Of a DNA stretch of 64,000 nucleotides, positions 17,560 through 26,162 are shown piece by piece; the first letter of the stretch is position 1; each line of letters begins with the position of its first letter. Source of the stretch: Pedobacter sp. (GTDB taxonomy: Bacteria > Desulfobacterota > Desulfuromonadia > Desulfuromonadales > Syntrophotaleaceae). Where the stretch lies: NCBI GenBank assembly GCA_050253415.1, contig JBFWJC010000004.1, positions 160,001 to 224,000 on the forward strand, in the 5' to 3' direction. The notes below the pieces were generated by a model. That model saw nothing but the letters and a program-made list of their open reading frames with translations. It did no database searches and was not told where the DNA came from. A program made the position numbers and the translations under genes.

Positions 17560-17794
17560 AGAAATACTCCGTAATGTTGCGTGACTTGCCAGCTATCCTA
17601 AAAGATGTAAATCAAACGGTCAATGGGGATTATAGGGAGGGCGCCCCCTGAGACATTCTACAGGCACATGCCGGGCTGTAAAAAACACCGCGAAACAGCG
17701 CTTTCAGGATAAAAGAATCAGGTCCGGACAGGCCTGGACAGGCAAACGATGCCTCGGCAAGGGAAAATTCATCGCCTCTCTTCGTAAATAATAA

Positions 17795-17822
17795 TTGACA
17801 ATTTTCCAGCCATTGATAATCT
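17795..17822 (+). promoter_or_regulatory. Putative sigma70 promoter of the RiPP-like cluster
   Basis: TTGACA-16 nt-TAATCT with a TGn extended -10. Confidence 0.5.
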
Positions 17823-17871
17823 GCTCTAAATTAAAACATTGTCTTTATTCAGAAAAATGAAAGTAATATCT

Positions 17872-18153
17872 ATGATACGCAGCGACACGGTTATTTCCCT
17901 GAGCCAGGATGCGACCTACCAGGATATGGGAGAAAATGAACCGGCGGTTATTTTGCAGCTTAGCACCGGAAGGCTCTTTACCTGCAACCTGACCACACGC
18001 TGCTTCCTTGATCTTTTGTCTGGTCCATGTTCCTTGGGCGACGCTGTCGATCAACTACTTAAAACGTTTGATGTGCCGCGTGAAAAACTGGAACGGGATC
18101 TCATAAAACTGGCAGGACAGCTTCTGGCCGCCGGTCTGATACAGCTTAACTGA
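17872..18153 (+). CDS. PqqD-family RiPP recognition element (RRE; lasso B1-like)
   Basis: About 93 aa; AVILQLSTGRLFTCN strands followed by helices (LLKTFDVPREKLERDLIKLAGQLLAAGLI). Start could be 17857. Confidence 0.85.
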   Translation: MIRSDTVISLSQDATYQDMGENEPAVILQLSTGRLFTCNLTTRCFLDLLSGPCSLGDAVDQLLKTFDVPREKLERDLIKLAGQLLAAGLIQLN

Positions 18154-18596
18154 TGCTTCCATGGATATTGCGGATACATATCCGCCTTGTTACCCTGGTT
18201 ATTCCTTTGCTGGACCGAATGCTCCCAACCCCGCGTCTGGTGCGCCTGCTGGCAAAACATGACCTGTGGCACCCTTATCGGGGCATTCCGGCCGACACGA
18301 TCACAAAATATGTCCATACCGCCCTGCGCAAGCCCCGTTGGATGAAGCGTCGGGCCTGCTATCGACTCGGGCTGACCATGAGCCACTTCCTGCACCTGGC
18401 CGGGAAACCAGTCGTACTGCACTTTGCCATTGCCCCACCCAGCTGCGATGCCATGCGACTGCACGGGCACTGCTGGGTCACCCTTGACGACCGAGCCATC
18501 ACCGCTCCGCCTGAACCTTCAACCGGCATGCGAACCTTTGTCCGGTTCAATATGGGCAGTGGCAGCCCATTTACCGCAAATCCAAAACAACCGTAG
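18153..18596 (+). CDS. Lasso-B2-type transglutaminase-like leader peptidase
   Basis: RRAC(YRLG) catalytic Cys and LHGHCWV (cf. AHAWV) motif; translationally coupled to the RRE (TGATG). Confidence 0.8.
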   Translation: MLPWILRIHIRLVTLVIPLLDRMLPTPRLVRLLAKHDLWHPYRGIPADTITKYVHTALRKPRWMKRRACYRLGLTMSHFLHLAGKPVVLHFAIAPPSCDAMRLHGHCWVTLDDRAITAPPEPSTGMRTFVRFNMGSGSPFTANPKQP

Positions 18597-18650
18597 CAGC
18601 CACAAATTTTGTGCGCATACCCTAGCCCCTTACATCACAGGAGTCAGCCC

Positions 18651-18764
18651 ATGGAGAGCACACCCCAGGAATACCAGGAACCGACCTTGGAAGAGCAGGA
18701 AACCCTGCAGGAAATTACCGAAGGCGTCGCGATGGTGGTTTCCGGAGCCCCGGACCCGACCTAG
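18651..18764 (+). CDS. Putative RiPP precursor peptide, 37 aa (not in the ORF track)
   Basis: MESTPQEYQEPTLEEQETLQEITEGVAMVVSGAPDPT; AGGAG RBS; YxxPxL and T(-2)-x-G motifs. Confidence 0.85.
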   Translation: MESTPQEYQEPTLEEQETLQEITEGVAMVVSGAPDPT

Positions 18765-19035
18765 AAGACGTGCTTTATGACGATCACGTACCCACCCGGA
18801 GCAAAAGTGCTCCCATGAGCAGCTAACAGAACTATCAGGAACTGTTTATGGGAGAGCTGGTAATTACCGGCGGCACTGCTCCGGCAGCATCGAATCGGCC
18901 TGAAACCTTTTCATCTGTAAAATGCCGGTATCCACGGTAACGCTTTTCAGAACACCCTCTTGTTGAGGCCGATTCACACCGGAACTTCCCGCTCCCCAGA
19001 AGTAATGTCCATCCATCCCCGGCCCGGATGTAACA

Positions 19036-20085
19036 ATGCCATCCGGATCGGGTTTGGTTTTAACGGAACAGCCCCCTTTGCGCTACTACGACATTCACAA
19101 TCTGTCACTGCGAGTTGAATCCGAGGATCAGGGACTTTTTTCAGCCATGGAGTCTCTGACAGCCGGTTTTTTCAGCCTGCCTGCATCTCCCCCTACGGAT
19201 AACAGTTTCATCCTGCGGGGACAAAGCGTTGTCGGCAGGGAAGAATTGCCTCTTCCCGACGAGCGCAGCTATCCCCTTTCGTTTGCCGGGACACCGGATA
19301 TCGGCCTGCCGATCAGACTATTGGTAAAACCACCGCACGAGCGCGTCTGGTTGCAACGGGATACCACCGTAACCCGCTGTGATTTGGGAAGACGCCAGGC
19401 GGAAGCCGTCGTCGTCCAGGGCCACTGGCCTTCATGGGGCTTCCAGACTCTGATCCCGCTGTTGGCGGAAGCGCTTGGCCGGCAGGACATGTTTCTGCTG
19501 CACGCTGGGGCGAATCTGTGGCCCGACGGTCGTTCATGTGTGCTGTTTTTCGGTGCCAGCGGCACCGGTAAGACCACGACGGTTCTGTCCCTGGCCTGCC
19601 AGGGCTGGTCACTACTCTGCGATGACGCAGGTTTTCTTACCACCCAGCAAGGCCAGCCCAGTCTGTGGGGACTGCCGCGAGCGAGCAAGGTTCACCATCA
19701 AACATTTCAACTGCTGCCATCCCTGTCTAAAATACCCCGCAAGGCCATTGCCGGCAGCGAGGAATGTCTGGTCAGCTTTCGTGATCTACCACATGTGTCC
19801 CCCCGAGAACGCATCCCGGTTCGCGCTATTTTTCTTCTGCAACCGCGCAACACAATACAGCACTTCTGCAGTCCTCTCACCGCAACGACCGTGTTGCCAC
19901 GCCTGATTCAAGGAAATATGAGGGTTATCGACCCCAACGCAACAGATAATGCCGGGAGGATGTTTAAAACTCTGAGCATCTTGTGCAAAACAACCCCTTG
20001 TTACAGTCTTTCCGTTGGGCCGGACCTAACGACCCTGCCAGCAGTCATACAAGCCTTGCCTGCGTCGAAGTTCTCCGCATGTTGA
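19036..20085 (+). CDS. HPr kinase-related P-loop peptide kinase
   Basis: LLHAG, GASGTGKTT Walker A, LLCDD. Confidence 0.8.
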   Translation: MPSGSGLVLTEQPPLRYYDIHNLSLRVESEDQGLFSAMESLTAGFFSLPASPPTDNSFILRGQSVVGREELPLPDERSYPLSFAGTPDIGLPIRLLVKPPHERVWLQRDTTVTRCDLGRRQAEAVVVQGHWPSWGFQTLIPLLAEALGRQDMFLLHAGANLWPDGRSCVLFFGASGTGKTTTVLSLACQGWSLLCDDAGFLTTQQGQPSLWGLPRASKVHHQTFQLLPSLSKIPRKAIAGSEECLVSFRDLPHVSPRERIPVRAIFLLQPRNTIQHFCSPLTATTVLPRLIQGNMRVIDPNATDNAGRMFKTLSILCKTTPCYSLSVGPDLTTLPAVIQALPASKFSAC

Positions 20086-21140
20086 GCCCGATGGACAGCT
20101 TATTCCTGGCCTTGTGCGACCCTGAAAGCATCGGCCCATCGTCAAACTGCAGGTTTTCAACGCAAGACCTGATACCGGCAGAATTGTGCCGAAAGGCCAC
20201 CTTTCACGGGGTTCACGGCCTGCTGCTGGCTAACCTGCAAAATCCAGCTTGGCAAGATAGCGCATCCAGAGAATGGTACGAGGCCATGCAGAAAGAGCTG
20301 ACGCCCATTGTCCGTGCTGACAGGGCGCGCGGTTTGGCACTGCGAGCCCAGGGAGAACGCATTTTACAGGTTTTGCGCGCCAGCAATATCCCGGTGCAAT
20401 TGATCAAAGGCGCGGATTTTGCGGACCATCTCTATCCTCGACCTGAATTGCGCAGTTTTACGGACATCGATCTGTTGGTTCGCCCGGAAGATTTCCAATC
20501 CGCACAAGACCTGTTACTTGAATGGGGTTGCCAACAACACCACACCGGCACGCTGAAACATGCGGCAACTTACGGTGAAACGGCCTTTACCAGCAAGGTT
20601 GCCGGCATGCAGCTGCGCGTGGAACTGCACTGGAACCTGGTAAACTCGCCTGCGTTACAAAAAGCCATGAGCGTCACTTTGAACGACCTGCTGGATGAGC
20701 ACGGGACATTGCGCCATGAAGGTCGTCTTCTGCTCGCCGCCATACATGCCGGCACCGGACATCAGTTCGATCGTCTGAAATTCCTCCTCGATCTACGGCA
20801 GATTTTTCGTCGTCTCAGTAAACAGTCCAATCTGCCATGGCTTTCCGAACGAATTACCCGAACCGGCTGTCGGCAGGTGATGGCAACGGCCTGCTGGCTG
20901 GTAGAAAATCTTTTTCAATGCAACGATGCACGCCAGTCAAGACTCCATCTCGGGATAAAGCACCCAGCCCTTCTCTGGAGGTGGATTCTGTCCCCGGGGT
21001 TGGTACTACGAGCCCACCAGCCGAACATAGCTGACGCCTTGCGTAAAAATCTCTACCGACAGCACCTTAAAAATGATCCAGTTGGCCCACCCCCCATGTC
21101 TGCGGACACTGAGCCCGCCAAACAACGAGGACCGTTGTGA
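20079..21140 (+). CDS. Nucleotidyltransferase (NTP_transf_5-like)
   Basis: LIKG...LYP...R.FTDIDLLV and VELHW motifs; overlaps the kinase stop. Confidence 0.83.
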   Translation: MLSPMDSLFLALCDPESIGPSSNCRFSTQDLIPAELCRKATFHGVHGLLLANLQNPAWQDSASREWYEAMQKELTPIVRADRARGLALRAQGERILQVLRASNIPVQLIKGADFADHLYPRPELRSFTDIDLLVRPEDFQSAQDLLLEWGCQQHHTGTLKHAATYGETAFTSKVAGMQLRVELHWNLVNSPALQKAMSVTLNDLLDEHGTLRHEGRLLLAAIHAGTGHQFDRLKFLLDLRQIFRRLSKQSNLPWLSERITRTGCRQVMATACWLVENLFQCNDARQSRLHLGIKHPALLWRWILSPGLVLRAHQPNIADALRKNLYRQHLKNDPVGPPPMSADTEPAKQRGPL

Positions 21141-22597
21141 GAGTCTTACTGATTGCCCCGACGCCCCCTGCCTGCCATTGGCCGCAAGGCGTATTTTTCT
21201 ACCCGGTGGTCCCGACAGAACTGGCCCACTGTGCAGCGCTGCTGCGCCAACACGGACATCAAGTACATCTCGAACAACGCGAAATCAGCCTGCTGCAGGA
21301 AAAGTTCGACTGGACGAAAGCGGATGCCCAGTTTGAAGCTTTACTGCTAAAATTCTTACCGGAACTGGTGGTCTTTTTTACCCCGACCGCATCGGCTGAT
21401 GAAGCCTTTCGTTTGGCCGATATAACCCGATCGTTTCTGGGGTCCTCCGCAAACATCCTGCTGTGTGGCCCCCATGCAACAGCGCTGCCGGAACAAACCC
21501 TCGCAGACTGTCCGGTTCTGGACGCGGTCATGGTCGGCGAATGGGAATGGACCCTGCTGGAGGCCGCGGAAAGGGGGCTAACCCCTGGTATCGCAGGCCT
21601 TCGATGTCCGACAGCGCCTCAAAAAGGCTGCATACCGCGACCGGCCTGTACCGAACTGGATAGTTTGCCTATGCCGGCGTGGGATCTGTGCGACATGGCC
21701 TATATCACCAACCGGCATCGTTGGCTGATTCGATGGCTTCCTTTACGGACCATCAATCTGCGTACCTCCCGCGGTTGCCCCAATGCCTGCAACTTTTGCG
21801 CTGCTCCGCTGACGGCCGGGGCCGGTGTCCGTTTCCATTCCGTGGAATACGTAACGGAAATGCTTGCTTACGCATTGCAAATCTATCCGGTCGAAGCGGT
21901 ACTGTTTGAGGATGAAACGTTTGCCGCGGATGAGTCACGTTTGCGGCAGTTGTGCGAAACGATACAAACACGGGGATGGCATCGCCGCCTGCAATGGGCC
22001 TGCTGCCTGCGCACCGACCAGGCGCGCCCCGACCTGCTGCGCGCAATGAAGGCCGCCGGCTGCATCCAGGTTGAATACGGATTTGAAACGGCAAGCAACA
22101 CGCTGCTGCAGGCCATAGGCAAAAATACCACCGTCGAGCAAAACCTTGCCGCCGCCCACCACACCAGAGAAGCTGGCCTGCGTGTTTACGCCAATATCAT
22201 GTTCGGGCTTCCCGGAGAAACGGCCATGGACATGCGCAACACAGTCAATTTTATCCGCGCCATACGCCCCGAAGTCATCTCCGCCTCCGCGATGGCCCCG
22301 TTCCCCGGCACAGCATTGTTTCGCGGCTTGAGCGCGGCGCAAAAAAAACGTCTGCAATGGGGAACGTTCACCTATCCGGATCAGTTTCGTTCCGGCTTTA
22401 ACCCCACGGCCATGACCGATGCACAATGGCGGAAGAAATACCTTCAGGTGCAGAAACACTTCATCAAGCCTCTGATATTACGGCAACTGCTGCGCGATGC
22501 GGAAAAGGAATCATCGGCCAATATCCAGCATTGGCGCAAACGATGGCGCCGTTTCTGCCGCCGGCACCCACTGAAAGCCTGGCGCCTGCCGGTTTAA
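21137..22597 (+). CDS. B12-binding-domain radical SAM enzyme
   Basis: N-terminal B12 domain (GPHATALP, GEWE); SRGCPNACNFC; DETF; GFET; GLPGET; GTGA overlap with the NTase. Confidence 0.9.
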   Translation: MRVLLIAPTPPACHWPQGVFFYPVVPTELAHCAALLRQHGHQVHLEQREISLLQEKFDWTKADAQFEALLLKFLPELVVFFTPTASADEAFRLADITRSFLGSSANILLCGPHATALPEQTLADCPVLDAVMVGEWEWTLLEAAERGLTPGIAGLRCPTAPQKGCIPRPACTELDSLPMPAWDLCDMAYITNRHRWLIRWLPLRTINLRTSRGCPNACNFCAAPLTAGAGVRFHSVEYVTEMLAYALQIYPVEAVLFEDETFAADESRLRQLCETIQTRGWHRRLQWACCLRTDQARPDLLRAMKAAGCIQVEYGFETASNTLLQAIGKNTTVEQNLAAAHHTREAGLRVYANIMFGLPGETAMDMRNTVNFIRAIRPEVISASAMAPFPGTALFRGLSAAQKKRLQWGTFTYPDQFRSGFNPTAMTDAQWRKKYLQVQKHFIKPLILRQLLRDAEKESSANIQHWRKRWRRFCRRHPLKAWRLPV

Positions 22598-22766
22598 ATC
22601 TGCCCCGGCGCTCCATTCACATTCAACGACCCTGCCGCAACCGTTGCAGATCTCAAACCGTTTCCAATTTCGGATTGCCAAACCGAAGGTTAGTGCGTAT
22701 GTTTTCAGGTTGAAGTACTTTGCGGATACATGGAAAGCGCCCGCTGCCAACCCAAGGAGATCCCAC

Positions 22767-23783
22767 GTGCGTATCCTTATCGTCACCCCTGAACAACCAC
22801 GCACGACAGGCAACTGGGTTTCAGCGCGGCGCCAACAGAAAGGACTACAAGCCCTTGGCCACGACGTTCATATCGTCGAAGCCGGAGAATCCGTCCAGCA
22901 ACTGGAAGGGGTCATTGAAAAGTACGCCCCCGATGTAGTGAATCTACTGCATGCTTTTCGCAGTGGCAAACAATGGCTGGCATGCAAACAAGCCGAACGC
23001 ATCCCCATGGCAGTCACGCTGACGGGCACCGACGTTAATCATGGACTTGCACATTCGGAACAGAGTCCGACAATTCTGACCGTCCTGAACCAGGCTCAAG
23101 CCGTCATTACCATTAATGCCCTGACCGCCATGGCGTTGCAGAGGCGTTACCCCGACCTGGCCTTGCGCCTGCACCACGTAGCACCTGCCATCGATCCCGG
23201 CCACGAGCCTTATAGCCTTCGCCAGAGACTGGAGATGCCACAGGACTGCGTACTATTCCTGCACCCTGCCAGTATCCGCCCCGTAAAAGCAAACCTGGAA
23301 CTGCTTGAAATGTTCCTGCCGGTTGCCTCCGCCGAACAGTCCTGCCGGCTGGTTTTTTGCGGACCGATGCTTGATGCTGTTTATGGAGATCGCTTTTTTA
23401 ACGCCATGAAACTATGCCCATGGGCCCATTACGCAGGAGAAATCCCGGCAGGTGCCATGCCTGCCGCCATGCTGGATGCAGACATCATCATCAACAACTC
23501 GATCAGTGAGGGCTTTTCCAACACCCTGTATGAAGCGGCCTGTCTTGGGACCCCGATATTGGCCAACGATATTCCCGGCAACATGGTTGCTTTTGAATCA
23601 GGCCGGCAGGGCCTTTTATACGACACGCCGCAAAGGTTCGTTGAGCAAGCGCTGACTATGGTACGCAATCCGGAGTTGCGCCGACAGCTCTCACAACCAC
23701 AGCATGCGCCGCGTTCACCGCAGGAAGAAGCCCGGCAACTCGAAAAAATCTTTTTAGCACTCGTAGCACAACCCCGATTGTAA
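22767..23783 (+). CDS. GT4 glycosyltransferase, SenB-like N-terminus
   Basis: GTG start with AAGGAG RBS; TGNWVSARR, LHAFRSG, LTGTD, SISEGFSNTLYEA. Confidence 0.82.
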   Translation: MRILIVTPEQPRTTGNWVSARRQQKGLQALGHDVHIVEAGESVQQLEGVIEKYAPDVVNLLHAFRSGKQWLACKQAERIPMAVTLTGTDVNHGLAHSEQSPTILTVLNQAQAVITINALTAMALQRRYPDLALRLHHVAPAIDPGHEPYSLRQRLEMPQDCVLFLHPASIRPVKANLELLEMFLPVASAEQSCRLVFCGPMLDAVYGDRFFNAMKLCPWAHYAGEIPAGAMPAAMLDADIIINNSISEGFSNTLYEAACLGTPILANDIPGNMVAFESGRQGLLYDTPQRFVEQALTMVRNPELRRQLSQPQHAPRSPQEEARQLEKIFLALVAQPRL

Positions 23784-25418: not shown

Positions 25419-26162
25419 ATGGCGAAAAGTCCAATGAATTTTCGTAAAAAAGCACTTCACCTGCTCTACCGCATCCAAGGCAAGAGAGTCTTGCACTTCC
25501 TCCATTTAGGTAAAACAGGTGGGACCGCTGTAAAACACGCCCTAATGCAGGCTCCTTCGGGAAGAAGGCATGTCCTCTACCTACATTCTCACAATGTCAA
25601 ATTGGAAGATATTGCAAAAGGGGAAGGTGTCTTCTTCTGCGTACGTAATCCAACGGCACGCTTTATCAGCGGATTTTACAGCCGTCAGCGTCAAGGTCAA
25701 CCCCGCCATTTCAGCCCATGGAGCCCCGAAGAAAAAAGTGCGTTTGAATTTTTCAGCACCCCAAACCAGTTAGGAAAAGCTCTTTCCTCGCAGGATCTTG
25801 AGCTAAGGCAACGGGCGATCAATGCCATGAAAAACATTCAACACATCAACTCCTCATACTGGGACTGGTTCAAGGATGAAGAATACCTGAGATCACGCCA
25901 GTCAGATATCTTTTTCATAGGCTTTCAGGAACAGTTGACTGAAAACTTCGAAATTTTGAAAATACGCCTCGAAATTCCCGCAAACATCGAACTGCCAAAA
26001 GATGACTTCCATGCTCATCGAAATCCCATACACCTGGATACATCCCTTGAAGCACAGGCCGTTAAAAACATCAGGGACTGGTACCAGGATGATTACCGAT
26101 TCATCAAACTATGTCGTGAAATCGTTGACCAACAGAAAGTGGAGGAAAAGACCATCCGATGA
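25419..26162 (+). CDS. Sulfotransferase family 2 protein
   Basis: FLHLGKTGGT PAPS-binding loop; VRNPTARFISGF. Confidence 0.72.
   Translation: MAKSPMNFRKKALHLLYRIQGKRVLHFLHLGKTGGTAVKHALMQAPSGRRHVLYLHSHNVKLEDIAKGEGVFFCVRNPTARFISGFYSRQRQGQPRHFSPWSPEEKSAFEFFSTPNQLGKALSSQDLELRQRAINAMKNIQHINSSYWDWFKDEEYLRSRQSDIFFIGFQEQLTENFEILKIRLEIPANIELPKDDFHAHRNPIHLDTSLEAQAVKNIRDWYQDDYRFIKLCREIVDQQKVEEKTIR

Follow-up and report, generated by a model that had tools for sequence, protein, structure and literature searches.

Background

What does a bacterium make with lasso-peptide machinery when there is no lasso cyclase? The question is raised by a run of genes in a stretch of 64,000 nucleotides (contig JBFWJC010000004.1 of assembly GCA_050253415.1, positions 160,001 to 224,000), called the window here. 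The genome that it comes from is G000. The run encodes what looks like the pathway of a peptide that is made by ribosomes and modified after its translation (RiPP): a RiPP recognition element (RRE), a B2-type leader peptidase (B2), a small precursor, a HprK-like kinase, an NTP_transf_5 nucleotidyltransferase (NTase) and a B12-binding-domain radical S-adenosylmethionine enzyme (rSAM).

The answer favoured here is that these six genes are a self-contained, horizontally mobile RiPP cassette, derived from lasso-peptide machinery, whose peptides are linear and not threaded. This is considered somewhat probable. By analogy with characterised systems, the product is likely a linear peptide that is phosphorylated on an invariant serine, and is then decorated by the NTase and the rSAM.

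An earlier reading, made from the sequence alone, had also proposed that lasso leader-processing machinery was repurposed here, with a family 4 glycosyltransferase (GT4) as a further member. The first part stands: the RRE/B2/kinase/NTase/rSAM operon is conserved and free of a cyclase. The membership of the GT4 does not.

Limits of the cassette

The cassette consists of the following features, with positions counted from the first letter of the window.

17636..22651, + strand: the whole cassette, a 5016-bp indel relative to the cassette-less locus L092 of genome G006, by blastn and pairwise alignment
17636..17871, + strand: non-coding head of the insert, within the indel and 5' of the first gene; presumed operon promoter region
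17872..18153, + strand: RRE, a discrete leader-binding protein of the PqqD family (B1-like), 93 aa; Pfam PqqD E 1.8e-11
18153..18596, + strand: B2, a B2-type transglutaminase-fold cysteine leader peptidase, 147 aa; Transglut_core3 and NF033537
18651..18764, + strand: precursor, 37 aa, MESTPQEYQEPTLEEQETLQEITEGVAMVVSGAPDPT; AGGAG 8 nt upstream of the ATG; between B2 and kinase
18765..19035, + strand: structured intergenic spacer of about 270 nt, between precursor and kinase
19036..20085, + strand: HprK/PEPCK-like P-loop putative peptide kinase, 349 aa; weak matches to TIGR04352 HprK_rel_A, PEPCK_ATP and hpr-ser
20079..21140, + strand: NTP_transf_5 NTase, 353 aa; Pfam NTP_transf_5 E 1.9e-37
21137..22597, + strand: rSAM, a radical SAM enzyme with a B12-binding domain (class B type), 486 aa; PF04055 plus N-terminal PF02310

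The open reading frame (ORF) list of the window has seven consecutive co-oriented ORFs on the + strand between 17.8 and 23.8 kb, as the sequence-only reading had stated. That reading also took RRE/B2 and kinase/NTase/rSAM to be translationally coupled, and the overlaps agree with it. The RRE and B2 genes have one base in common. The kinase and NTase genes overlap by 7 nt (ATGTTGA) where the kinase gene ends, with the NTase ATG at 20079 and not at 20082. The NTase and rSAM genes overlap in GTGA, at the NTase stop. All five protein families that were expected (PqqD, Transglut_core3, NTP_transf_5, B12-binding and Radical_SAM) are found by profile search. The seventh ORF is the GT4, and because this gene also sits in G006, without the cassette, the system has six genes and not seven.

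The borders follow from G006, which is of the same genus and does not carry the cassette. Homology between the window and the G006 locus (L092) ends at 17635 and restarts at 22652, and G006 has 88 bp in place of the window's 5016 bp. The insert holds RRE, B2, precursor, HprK-like kinase, NTP_transf_5 NTase and B12-binding rSAM, which is six genes, plus a 236-bp upstream region.

A promoter would be expected in this head region (17636-17871). A sigma-70 consensus scan of the + strand ahead of the RRE gave no convincing site, and the counts of the promoter and terminator scans are not better than those of shuffled sequence. Among 23 sequencing runs, no RNA data set was listed. No direct repeats or mobile-element genes were seen by eye at the indel borders, for which no formal search was made.

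Relatives in other genomes

Close homologues of the kinase were sought in 41 relatives and in 233 genomes of the order. Within the order they occur in G000, G001, G008 and G010, which are of the same family, and in G594, which is of another. The cassette is carried by five species of these two families, the window's genome included. G001, where the kinase is 92% identical, G008 and G594 have the six genes in identical order. G010 has precursor, kinase, NTase and rSAM, and its contig ends before RRE and B2. By tblastn, the order RRE, B2, precursor(s), kinase, NTase, B12-rSAM is present in L013, L015 (with L039) and L067, while L014 is interrupted by a contig end before B2. The sequence-only reading had proposed a survey of neighbourhoods for the same cyclase-free architecture, and this architecture does exist in other species of the order.

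The spread is very patchy. Two of the seven genomes of the genus have the cassette. In a sample of 401 genomes of the phylum, which did not include G001, G008, G010 and G594, the close kinase match is G000 itself only, and the next best has E 4.8e-23. A contig search with a single kinase query returned only the 92%-identical relative. A metagenome search with the kinase alignment gave 16 loci, of which only L039 is close (with tblastn identities as in L015), and the others are remote P-loop matches. In a collection of 5.8 billion proteins, just 9 clusters have at least 46% identity to the kinase.

The flanks of the close cassettes differ from each other and consist of housekeeping genes (trmD, rnhB, NadE, hemL and a U32 peptidase). 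They are free of Asn_synthase, exporter and GT4 genes.

Judged by substitution patterns, the cassette is under purifying selection. Compared with the 92%-identical relative G001, the five enzyme genes have ratios of nonsynonymous to synonymous substitution rates (dN/dS) of 0.15-0.27. The precursor, at 0.46, is the fastest-evolving gene of the cassette.

The precursor family

The precursor of the window has a predicted leader (residues 1-24) with Y8xxP11xL13 and with Thr23 at position -2, followed by a predicted core (residues 25-37) with an invariant Ser31-Gly32. There are nine precursor copies over the five loci: one in the window, two in G001, at least one in G010, four in G008 and one in G594. 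All nine are in the same position and on the same strand. When they are aligned, Y8, P11, L13, S31 and G32 are invariant. The lasso-type leader motif YxxPxL is present in nine of nine, and Thr at -2 in eight.

With 11-16 residues, the predicted cores are short, and they are hydrophobic. Only [V/T]-S-G is kept among them; the residues after this motif differ freely. The invariant Ser is at core position 5-7. In the G594 precursor, the PVSG motif is present twice.

The spacer that follows the precursor gene is strongly structured. The RNA fold of 18760-19040 comes to -88 kcal/mol with z = -3.0, and none of 200 shuffles is equally stable. The spacer may act as an attenuator or as a stabiliser. 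In G001, the stretch that matches it contains the second precursor copy.

Absence of a cyclase

The sequence-only reading saw no asparagine-synthetase-like lasso cyclase anywhere in the 64 kb. This is correct, and it extends to the whole genome. Among the scanned window ORFs of at least 90 residues, there is no Asn_synthase. A six-frame search of G000 (4.10 Mb in 18 contigs, 100% complete) with PF00733 (Asn_synthase) gives 0 matches; it covered the assembly except for 4535 bases, and the same search is positive in 11 of 14 control genomes. In G010 (99% complete), PF00733 gives short weak fragments only. The matches in G001, G008 and G594 are all on contigs other than that of the cassette.

Locally the picture is the same. 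No Asn_synthase is found beside the cassette in L013, L014, L015 and L067, nor among 45 scanned flank ORFs of L067, L015 and L014. The earlier reading was to fall if homologous loci all contained a cyclase. All five close loci are without an adjoining one.

Ring closure in a lasso peptide takes an Asp or Glu at core position 7-9. Such a residue is present in three of the nine cores and is absent from that of the window, and two of the nine have no acidic residue at all. Of what defines a lasso cluster, the locus therefore has the YxxPxL/Thr(-2) leader together with RRE and B2, and it does not have the cyclase and the ring Asp/Glu. With neither a cyclase nor a ring-forming residue, the cassette falls outside the lasso family.

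It could still be a lasso cluster in decay, with its cyclase lost and pseudogenisation under way, or with a cyclase encoded elsewhere. Leader motif, RRE and B2 are indeed all lasso-type, and G001, G008 and G594 have Asn_synthase-domain genes on other contigs. However, none of the genes is broken and purifying selection acts on them, and five species of two families have the cyclase-free order in common. G000 has no Asn_synthase and G010 has only fragments, and the ring-forming Asp/Glu is found in just three of the nine cores. Since the genes are selected, the cyclase-free order recurs, and Asn_synthase is found only on other contigs or as fragments, decay is largely refuted and is rated as highly improbable.

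Leader-handling proteins

The start codon of the RRE was picked by alignment with its orthologues. A profile of four RRE orthologues, compared with the Protein Data Bank (PDB), matches the lasso RRE TbiB1 (3.6e-5), a lasso PqqD chaperone and TfuB1. On two lasso PqqD 'exception' models the RRE scores 30.5 bits (cut-off 70) and 25.7 bits (cut-off 80).

B2 scores 35.9 bits on NF033537, lasso_biosyn_B2, where the cut-off is 33. Its Cys69 and His106 are invariant in eight aligned homologues, including distant ones at 14-21% identity. A single-protein sequence search of the PDB with B2 gave no meaningful match.

Co-folding of RRE and precursor gives a score of 0.50, where the best control has 0.02. 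Of 157 solved complexes, 116 reach the mark that was used, as do 2 of 215 mismatched pairs; scores of at most 0.60 that still reach the mark come from just 18 of the 157 solved complexes and from both passing mismatches. Across the runs, contact agreement is at least 87%, and the predicted local distance difference test score (pLDDT) of the partner is at least 53. This weakly suggests that the RRE binds the precursor, and the pass may stem from a resemblance to the solved RRE-leader complexes of lasso systems.

Modifying enzymes

In the kinase, His156, G173-x-x-G-x-G-K179-T180 and D196-D197 are invariant in four orthologues. These residue types match those that matter in the kinase BsfK, going by the available part of its description (PMC10368454). 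A single-protein sequence search of the PDB gives weak PEPCK P-loop matches only. Precomputed annotation assigns PF27840 to homologues of the kinase (P0001, P0004-P0009); the Pfam scan of the window's kinase came without it.

The NTase has G110, D128 and D130 (G...DxD) invariant in 31 homologues. Its AlphaFold2 (AF2) model has a pLDDT of 90.6. The best Foldseek matches of this model are a CCA-adding enzyme, MenT1, ANT(2'')-Ia and LnuA, all weak (E at least 1.3e-3), and they hint at a general Pol-beta-type fold and at no specific function. A single-protein sequence search of the PDB with the NTase found no meaningful match.

The rSAM matches Radical_SAM (PF04055) with E 1.5e-19 and 71.2 bits. 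It matches the B12-binding domain (PF02310) with E 1.1e-7 and 32.1 bits, which is exactly the cut-off. Binding of cobalamin is putative. In NCBIfam the matches are, in order, HpnJ (150.8 bits, cut-off 577.6), the PhpK family (116.1, cut-off 600), ApyD (113.5, cut-off 750), a lipid B12-rSAM, and AprD4 (98.1, cut-off 500), all far below cut-off. The nearest solved chain is AprD4 (6fd2, E 3.9e-21). Because 98-151 bits are set against cut-offs of 500-750 bits, the sequence places the rSAM outside the HpnJ, PhpK, ApyD and AprD4 families.

HpnJ and AprD4 act on sugar moieties, and AprD4 is not known to use cobalamin. PhpK and ApyD are B12-rSAM methyltransferases. The rSAM is like all four in domain layout and in its CxxxCxxC radical SAM core, and differs in that its presumed substrate is a peptide or a peptide-linked group. 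Methylation would be one of two live options, the other being sugar modification, because the nearest relatives modify sugars (HpnJ, AprD4) and the methyltransferases score lower.

The rSAM (21137-22597) has homologues (P0030-P0107) in about 80 clusters at 41-49% full-length identity, which far outnumber the kinase family. Several of these clusters are labelled Planctomycetota, Sedimentisphaerales or Phycisphaerales. One rSAM match (P0030) and one NTase match (P0157) each report a longest contig of 5536 bases, which is a hint only.

Proposed pathway

By analogy we infer all of the pathway's chemistry, the sequence of its steps, where the precursor is cleaved and what becomes of the product. 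The PqqD-type RRE would bind the YxxPxL of the acidic leader. The HprK-like kinase would then phosphorylate the sole invariant core hydroxyl, the Ser of [V/T]-S-G (core position 5-7), on the peptide held by the RRE. The NTP_transf_5 enzyme would extend the phosphate with a hexose or a nucleotide-derived group, as PsmN does in pseudomycoidin. Following this, the coupled B12-type rSAM would either remodel the appended group or C-methylate a neighbouring hydrophobic residue. B2 would cut last, after the residue that follows Thr(-2), releasing a decorated linear peptide of 11-16 residues.

Several observations count against such a cassette. None of the five close cassettes has an exporter or an immunity gene, which is unusual for a secreted RiPP. 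One of the nine precursors has Val for Thr at -2, and two of the nine predicted cores do not start with Gly, which makes the predicted cleavage site uncertain. The invariant Ser is neither at +3, as in the Bsf and LPP systems that are compared below, nor C-terminal, as in paeninodin. The acidic third residue of the B2 triad has no single fixed alignment column. With 33.5 bits on TIGR04352, the kinase is far from the equivalog cut-off of 200, and it is remote from all curated kinase models; its AF2 model, built on a four-row alignment, has a pLDDT of 50.7, so its fold is not structurally confirmed. Lastly, the rSAM may have been recruited from an unrelated pathway, because its family is so much larger than that of the kinase.

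The lack of a transporter in any close cassette also fits a different idea. The peptide could be a scaffold, from whose Val-Ser-Gly site rSAM and peptidase carve a phosphorylated or glycosylated small molecule or cofactor. The combination of RRE, rSAM and peptidase with no exporter is that of the pyrroloquinoline quinone (PQQ) and mycofactocin pathways, and V-S-G is the sole conserved element of the cores. A genome can have up to four paralogous precursors however, with divergent cores, and the precursor evolves fastest (0.46), which fits diversified peptides. Presence in two of seven genomes of the genus fits an accessory trait better than a cofactor. A peptide-derived small molecule is considered unlikely, and a cassette for linear modified peptides remains the favoured reading.

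More distant cassettes

The remote kinase matches come in four layouts, which extend the comparison beyond the five close loci. Type B is found in G007, G135, G288, G230 and G598, sometimes with an ABC exporter. Its order is PqqD, precursor, kinase, a radical SAM enzyme of about 500 aa, NTase, a B12-rSAM of 730-810 aa, a radical SAM enzyme of about 324 aa, and B2. Type C is G163 (L068), where B2, kinase and NTase are divergent from a DUF362 gene and a B12-rSAM (34% identity). Type D is found in G483, G461, G584 and G484: PqqD, kinase, family 2 glycosyltransferase (GT2) genes, NTase and a sulfotransferase in polysaccharide-type loci, without B2. In G221 there are B2 and kinase, and then the contig ends.

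The B12-rSAM is present in five of five close loci, and in the window it is translationally coupled to the NTase. It was seen in 11 of 12 cassettes that are close or contain B2; the exception is G221, which ends at a contig edge. NTase and B12-rSAM are also adjacent in the distant cassettes L069, L072 and L075.

The type D setting raises the question whether the small ORF is a substrate at all. The target of kinase, NTase and rSAM could instead be some other protein, a lipid or a glycan, with RRE and B2 as bystanders. HprK-like/PqqD/NTP_transf_5 sets without B2 do occur amid GT2 genes, sulfotransferases and ABC-2/Wzt transporters (L073, L076, L077, L079), and sugars are the substrates of the rSAM's nearest characterised relatives. 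Yet the place, strand, ribosome-binding site and invariant motif of the precursor are kept in five of five close loci, its leader has the exact motif that lasso-type RREs bind, and the enzyme genes overlap as one operon. That the small ORF is not the substrate is judged decidedly improbable, which leaves the peptide as the favoured substrate.

The type C cassette of G163 is like that of the window in having B2, kinase and NTase, no cyclase, and short linear cores that contain Ser. Three tandem precursor genes (L068:8113-8551, + strand) lie between the DUF362/B12-rSAM pair and the divergent NTase/kinase/B2 set. They have the same kind of leader, and predicted cores of 5-7 residues in which Ser is found at +2 or +3. 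A different GT4 is nearby, at L068:4289-5389.

Type-B cassettes encode a conserved peptide of 29-40 aa directly after PqqD, for example MKKSYVAPQFFKHNPLESVSATYYYYYYY. Its leader contains a Y-x-x-P motif, a Val-Ser site is present, and at least six tyrosines in a row form its C-terminus. These peptides look like a separate undescribed radical-SAM RiPP family. Their genes are:

L069:11022-11111, - strand: type-B peptide
L070:9047-9136, + strand: type-B peptide
L072:9191-9280, + strand: type-B peptide
L016:9240-9329, - strand: type-B peptide
L075:10861-10983, - strand: type-B peptide

The edge of the G598 type-B cassette also has the sole Asn_synthase gene that adjoins any surveyed cassette (L075:1722-3659, - strand). 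This gene has strong GATase_6/7 domains, like ordinary AsnB, a true asparagine synthetase.

Neighbouring genes

The GT4 directly follows the cassette:

22644-23783 (ORF), + strand: family 4 glycosyltransferase; likely true start GTG 22767

This GTG is preceded by a conserved AAGGAG and a promoter-like site, in the stretch where homology with G006 restarts. The gene order of G006 is that of the window (HAD, HlyD, RND pump, ferredoxin, GT4, MATE, sulfotransferase, ferredoxin, GGDEF, epimerase), with the cassette absent, and the GT4 is syntenic between ferredoxin and MATE pump. Homologues of the GT4 (E at most 1e-20) are found in 29 of 41 related genomes, many of which do not have the kinase. In G008, GT4 and cassette are on different contigs. 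The GT4 reaches 372 bits on NCBIfam NF038229 ('GPMC system family 4 glycosyltransferase'), where the cut-off is 400.

The GT4 belongs to the core genes of the clade. It is conserved as part of the flank, has an upstream region of its own, and is not a RiPP tailoring enzyme. The earlier claim that it is part of the system does not survive its presence in cassette-less G006 and in 29 of 41 relatives.

Sulfotransferases adjoin some lasso clusters, and a Sulfotransfer_2 gene (25419-26162, E 2.4e-5) does lie near the cassette. The G006 copy has 75% identity, and the corresponding stretch of G003 (L093) lacks the gene. Its closeness is a coincidence, because the gene is present in G006, which has no cassette, and missing from the G003 stretch. 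Both GT4 and sulfotransferase are ruled out as cassette members, being in the same order in G006.

Comparison with known systems

Cyclase-free relatives of lasso clusters are not entirely new. The clusters for linear polyphosphorylated peptides (LPP; lppA-K-B-S-D-N; Popov et al., Nat Commun 2026, PMC13381572) were described from Paenibacillus alginolyticus and other Bacillota. As given in the parts of that paper which were available, they are cyclase-free, and consist of a precursor, a HprK-like kinase, an RRE, a SpI-type peptidase, an MsbA-like exporter and an NTP transferase. LppK polyphosphorylates Ser3 of a linear core of 45 residues. In the heterologous host, the NTase LppN showed no activity, and the authors suppose that a partner is needed. 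According to them, LPP is restricted to Bacillota. A term search of the paper's text (PMC13381572) gives 0 occurrences of 'radical SAM' and 'B12'.

On the same available parts, LPP and the cassette are alike in being cyclase-free, with a discrete lasso-type RRE, a YxxP leader, a HprK-like kinase and an NTP transferase. Both have a linear core with a conserved Ser, which in LPP is phosphorylated. They differ in the peptidase, which is the SpI-like (SipW-type) LppS in LPP and B2-type in the cassette, and in the exporter, MsbA-like LppD versus no ABC exporter in the five close cassettes. Of the LPP motif YxxPxVLxHQxIxFETxxS, the cassette shares only the YxxPxL part and the Thr near the cleavage site. 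The Ser is at core +3 in LPP, whereas it is at +5 to +7 within [V/T]SG in the cassette. LPP cores extend to at least 45 residues, those of the cassette have 11-16. The cassette is not an LPP as defined, because of its B2 instead of a SpI peptidase, the lack of an exporter, the different core motif and the added B12-rSAM.

Lasso clusters with a kinase form the other point of comparison. In the bsf cluster of Bradymonas sediminis, BsfK phosphorylates core Ser3 and is stimulated by the RRE (PMC10368454), and in pseudomycoidin PsmN adds hexoses to the phosphate (PMC8498205). As far as the available portions of these two sources extend, bsf, paeninodin and pseudomycoidin are like the cassette in B1 RRE, B2, HprK-like kinase, NTase and YxxPxL leader, and unlike it in having an Asn-synthetase-like cyclase and an ABC exporter and in making threaded lassos. 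No B12-type radical SAM enzyme is reported for them in these portions (PMC10368454, PMC8498205).

By these comparisons, the cassette resembles the LPP and lasso systems in its leader handling and probably in phosphorylation. It would be kin to the recently recognised cyclase-free, lasso-derived phosphopeptide systems, with the constant B12-type rSAM partner as the new element. Literature searches, with subscription-only papers outside their scope, found no published description of the RRE/B2/kinase/NTase/B12-rSAM layout; the paper that they listed for NTP_transf_5 (PF14907) deals with phosphonate biosynthesis. The 'undescribed RiPP class' of the sequence-only reading is nevertheless too strong, given that LPP are published as linear phosphorylated relatives of lasso peptides that need no cyclase (PMC13381572).

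A more ambitious proposal is possible, and is held only tentatively. Kinase, NTP_transf_5 enzyme and B12-rSAM may be one unit, which builds a new phosphodiester-linked, radical-remodelled group on the invariant Val-Ser of linear peptides. Together with the lasso-type RRE and B2, this unit might define an undescribed RiPP class through the Desulfobacterota, including a branch with poly-tyrosine precursors, and the rSAM might be the 'missing partner' of LppN. If this were true, a sugar that has been deoxygenated or rearranged would be one candidate for the group, and a methylated derivative of phosphate another.

Cyclase-free lasso relatives have only just entered the literature, with LPP in 2026. 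The cassette adds a clean system from a Gram-negative anaerobe: compact (six genes, 5 kb), sharply bordered and with a canonical B2. It is suited to asking what the NTase attaches to phosphoserine, and whether radical chemistry targets the appendage or the peptide. The wider survey means that the RRE/B2/kinase/NTase module is reused with quite different precursor families.

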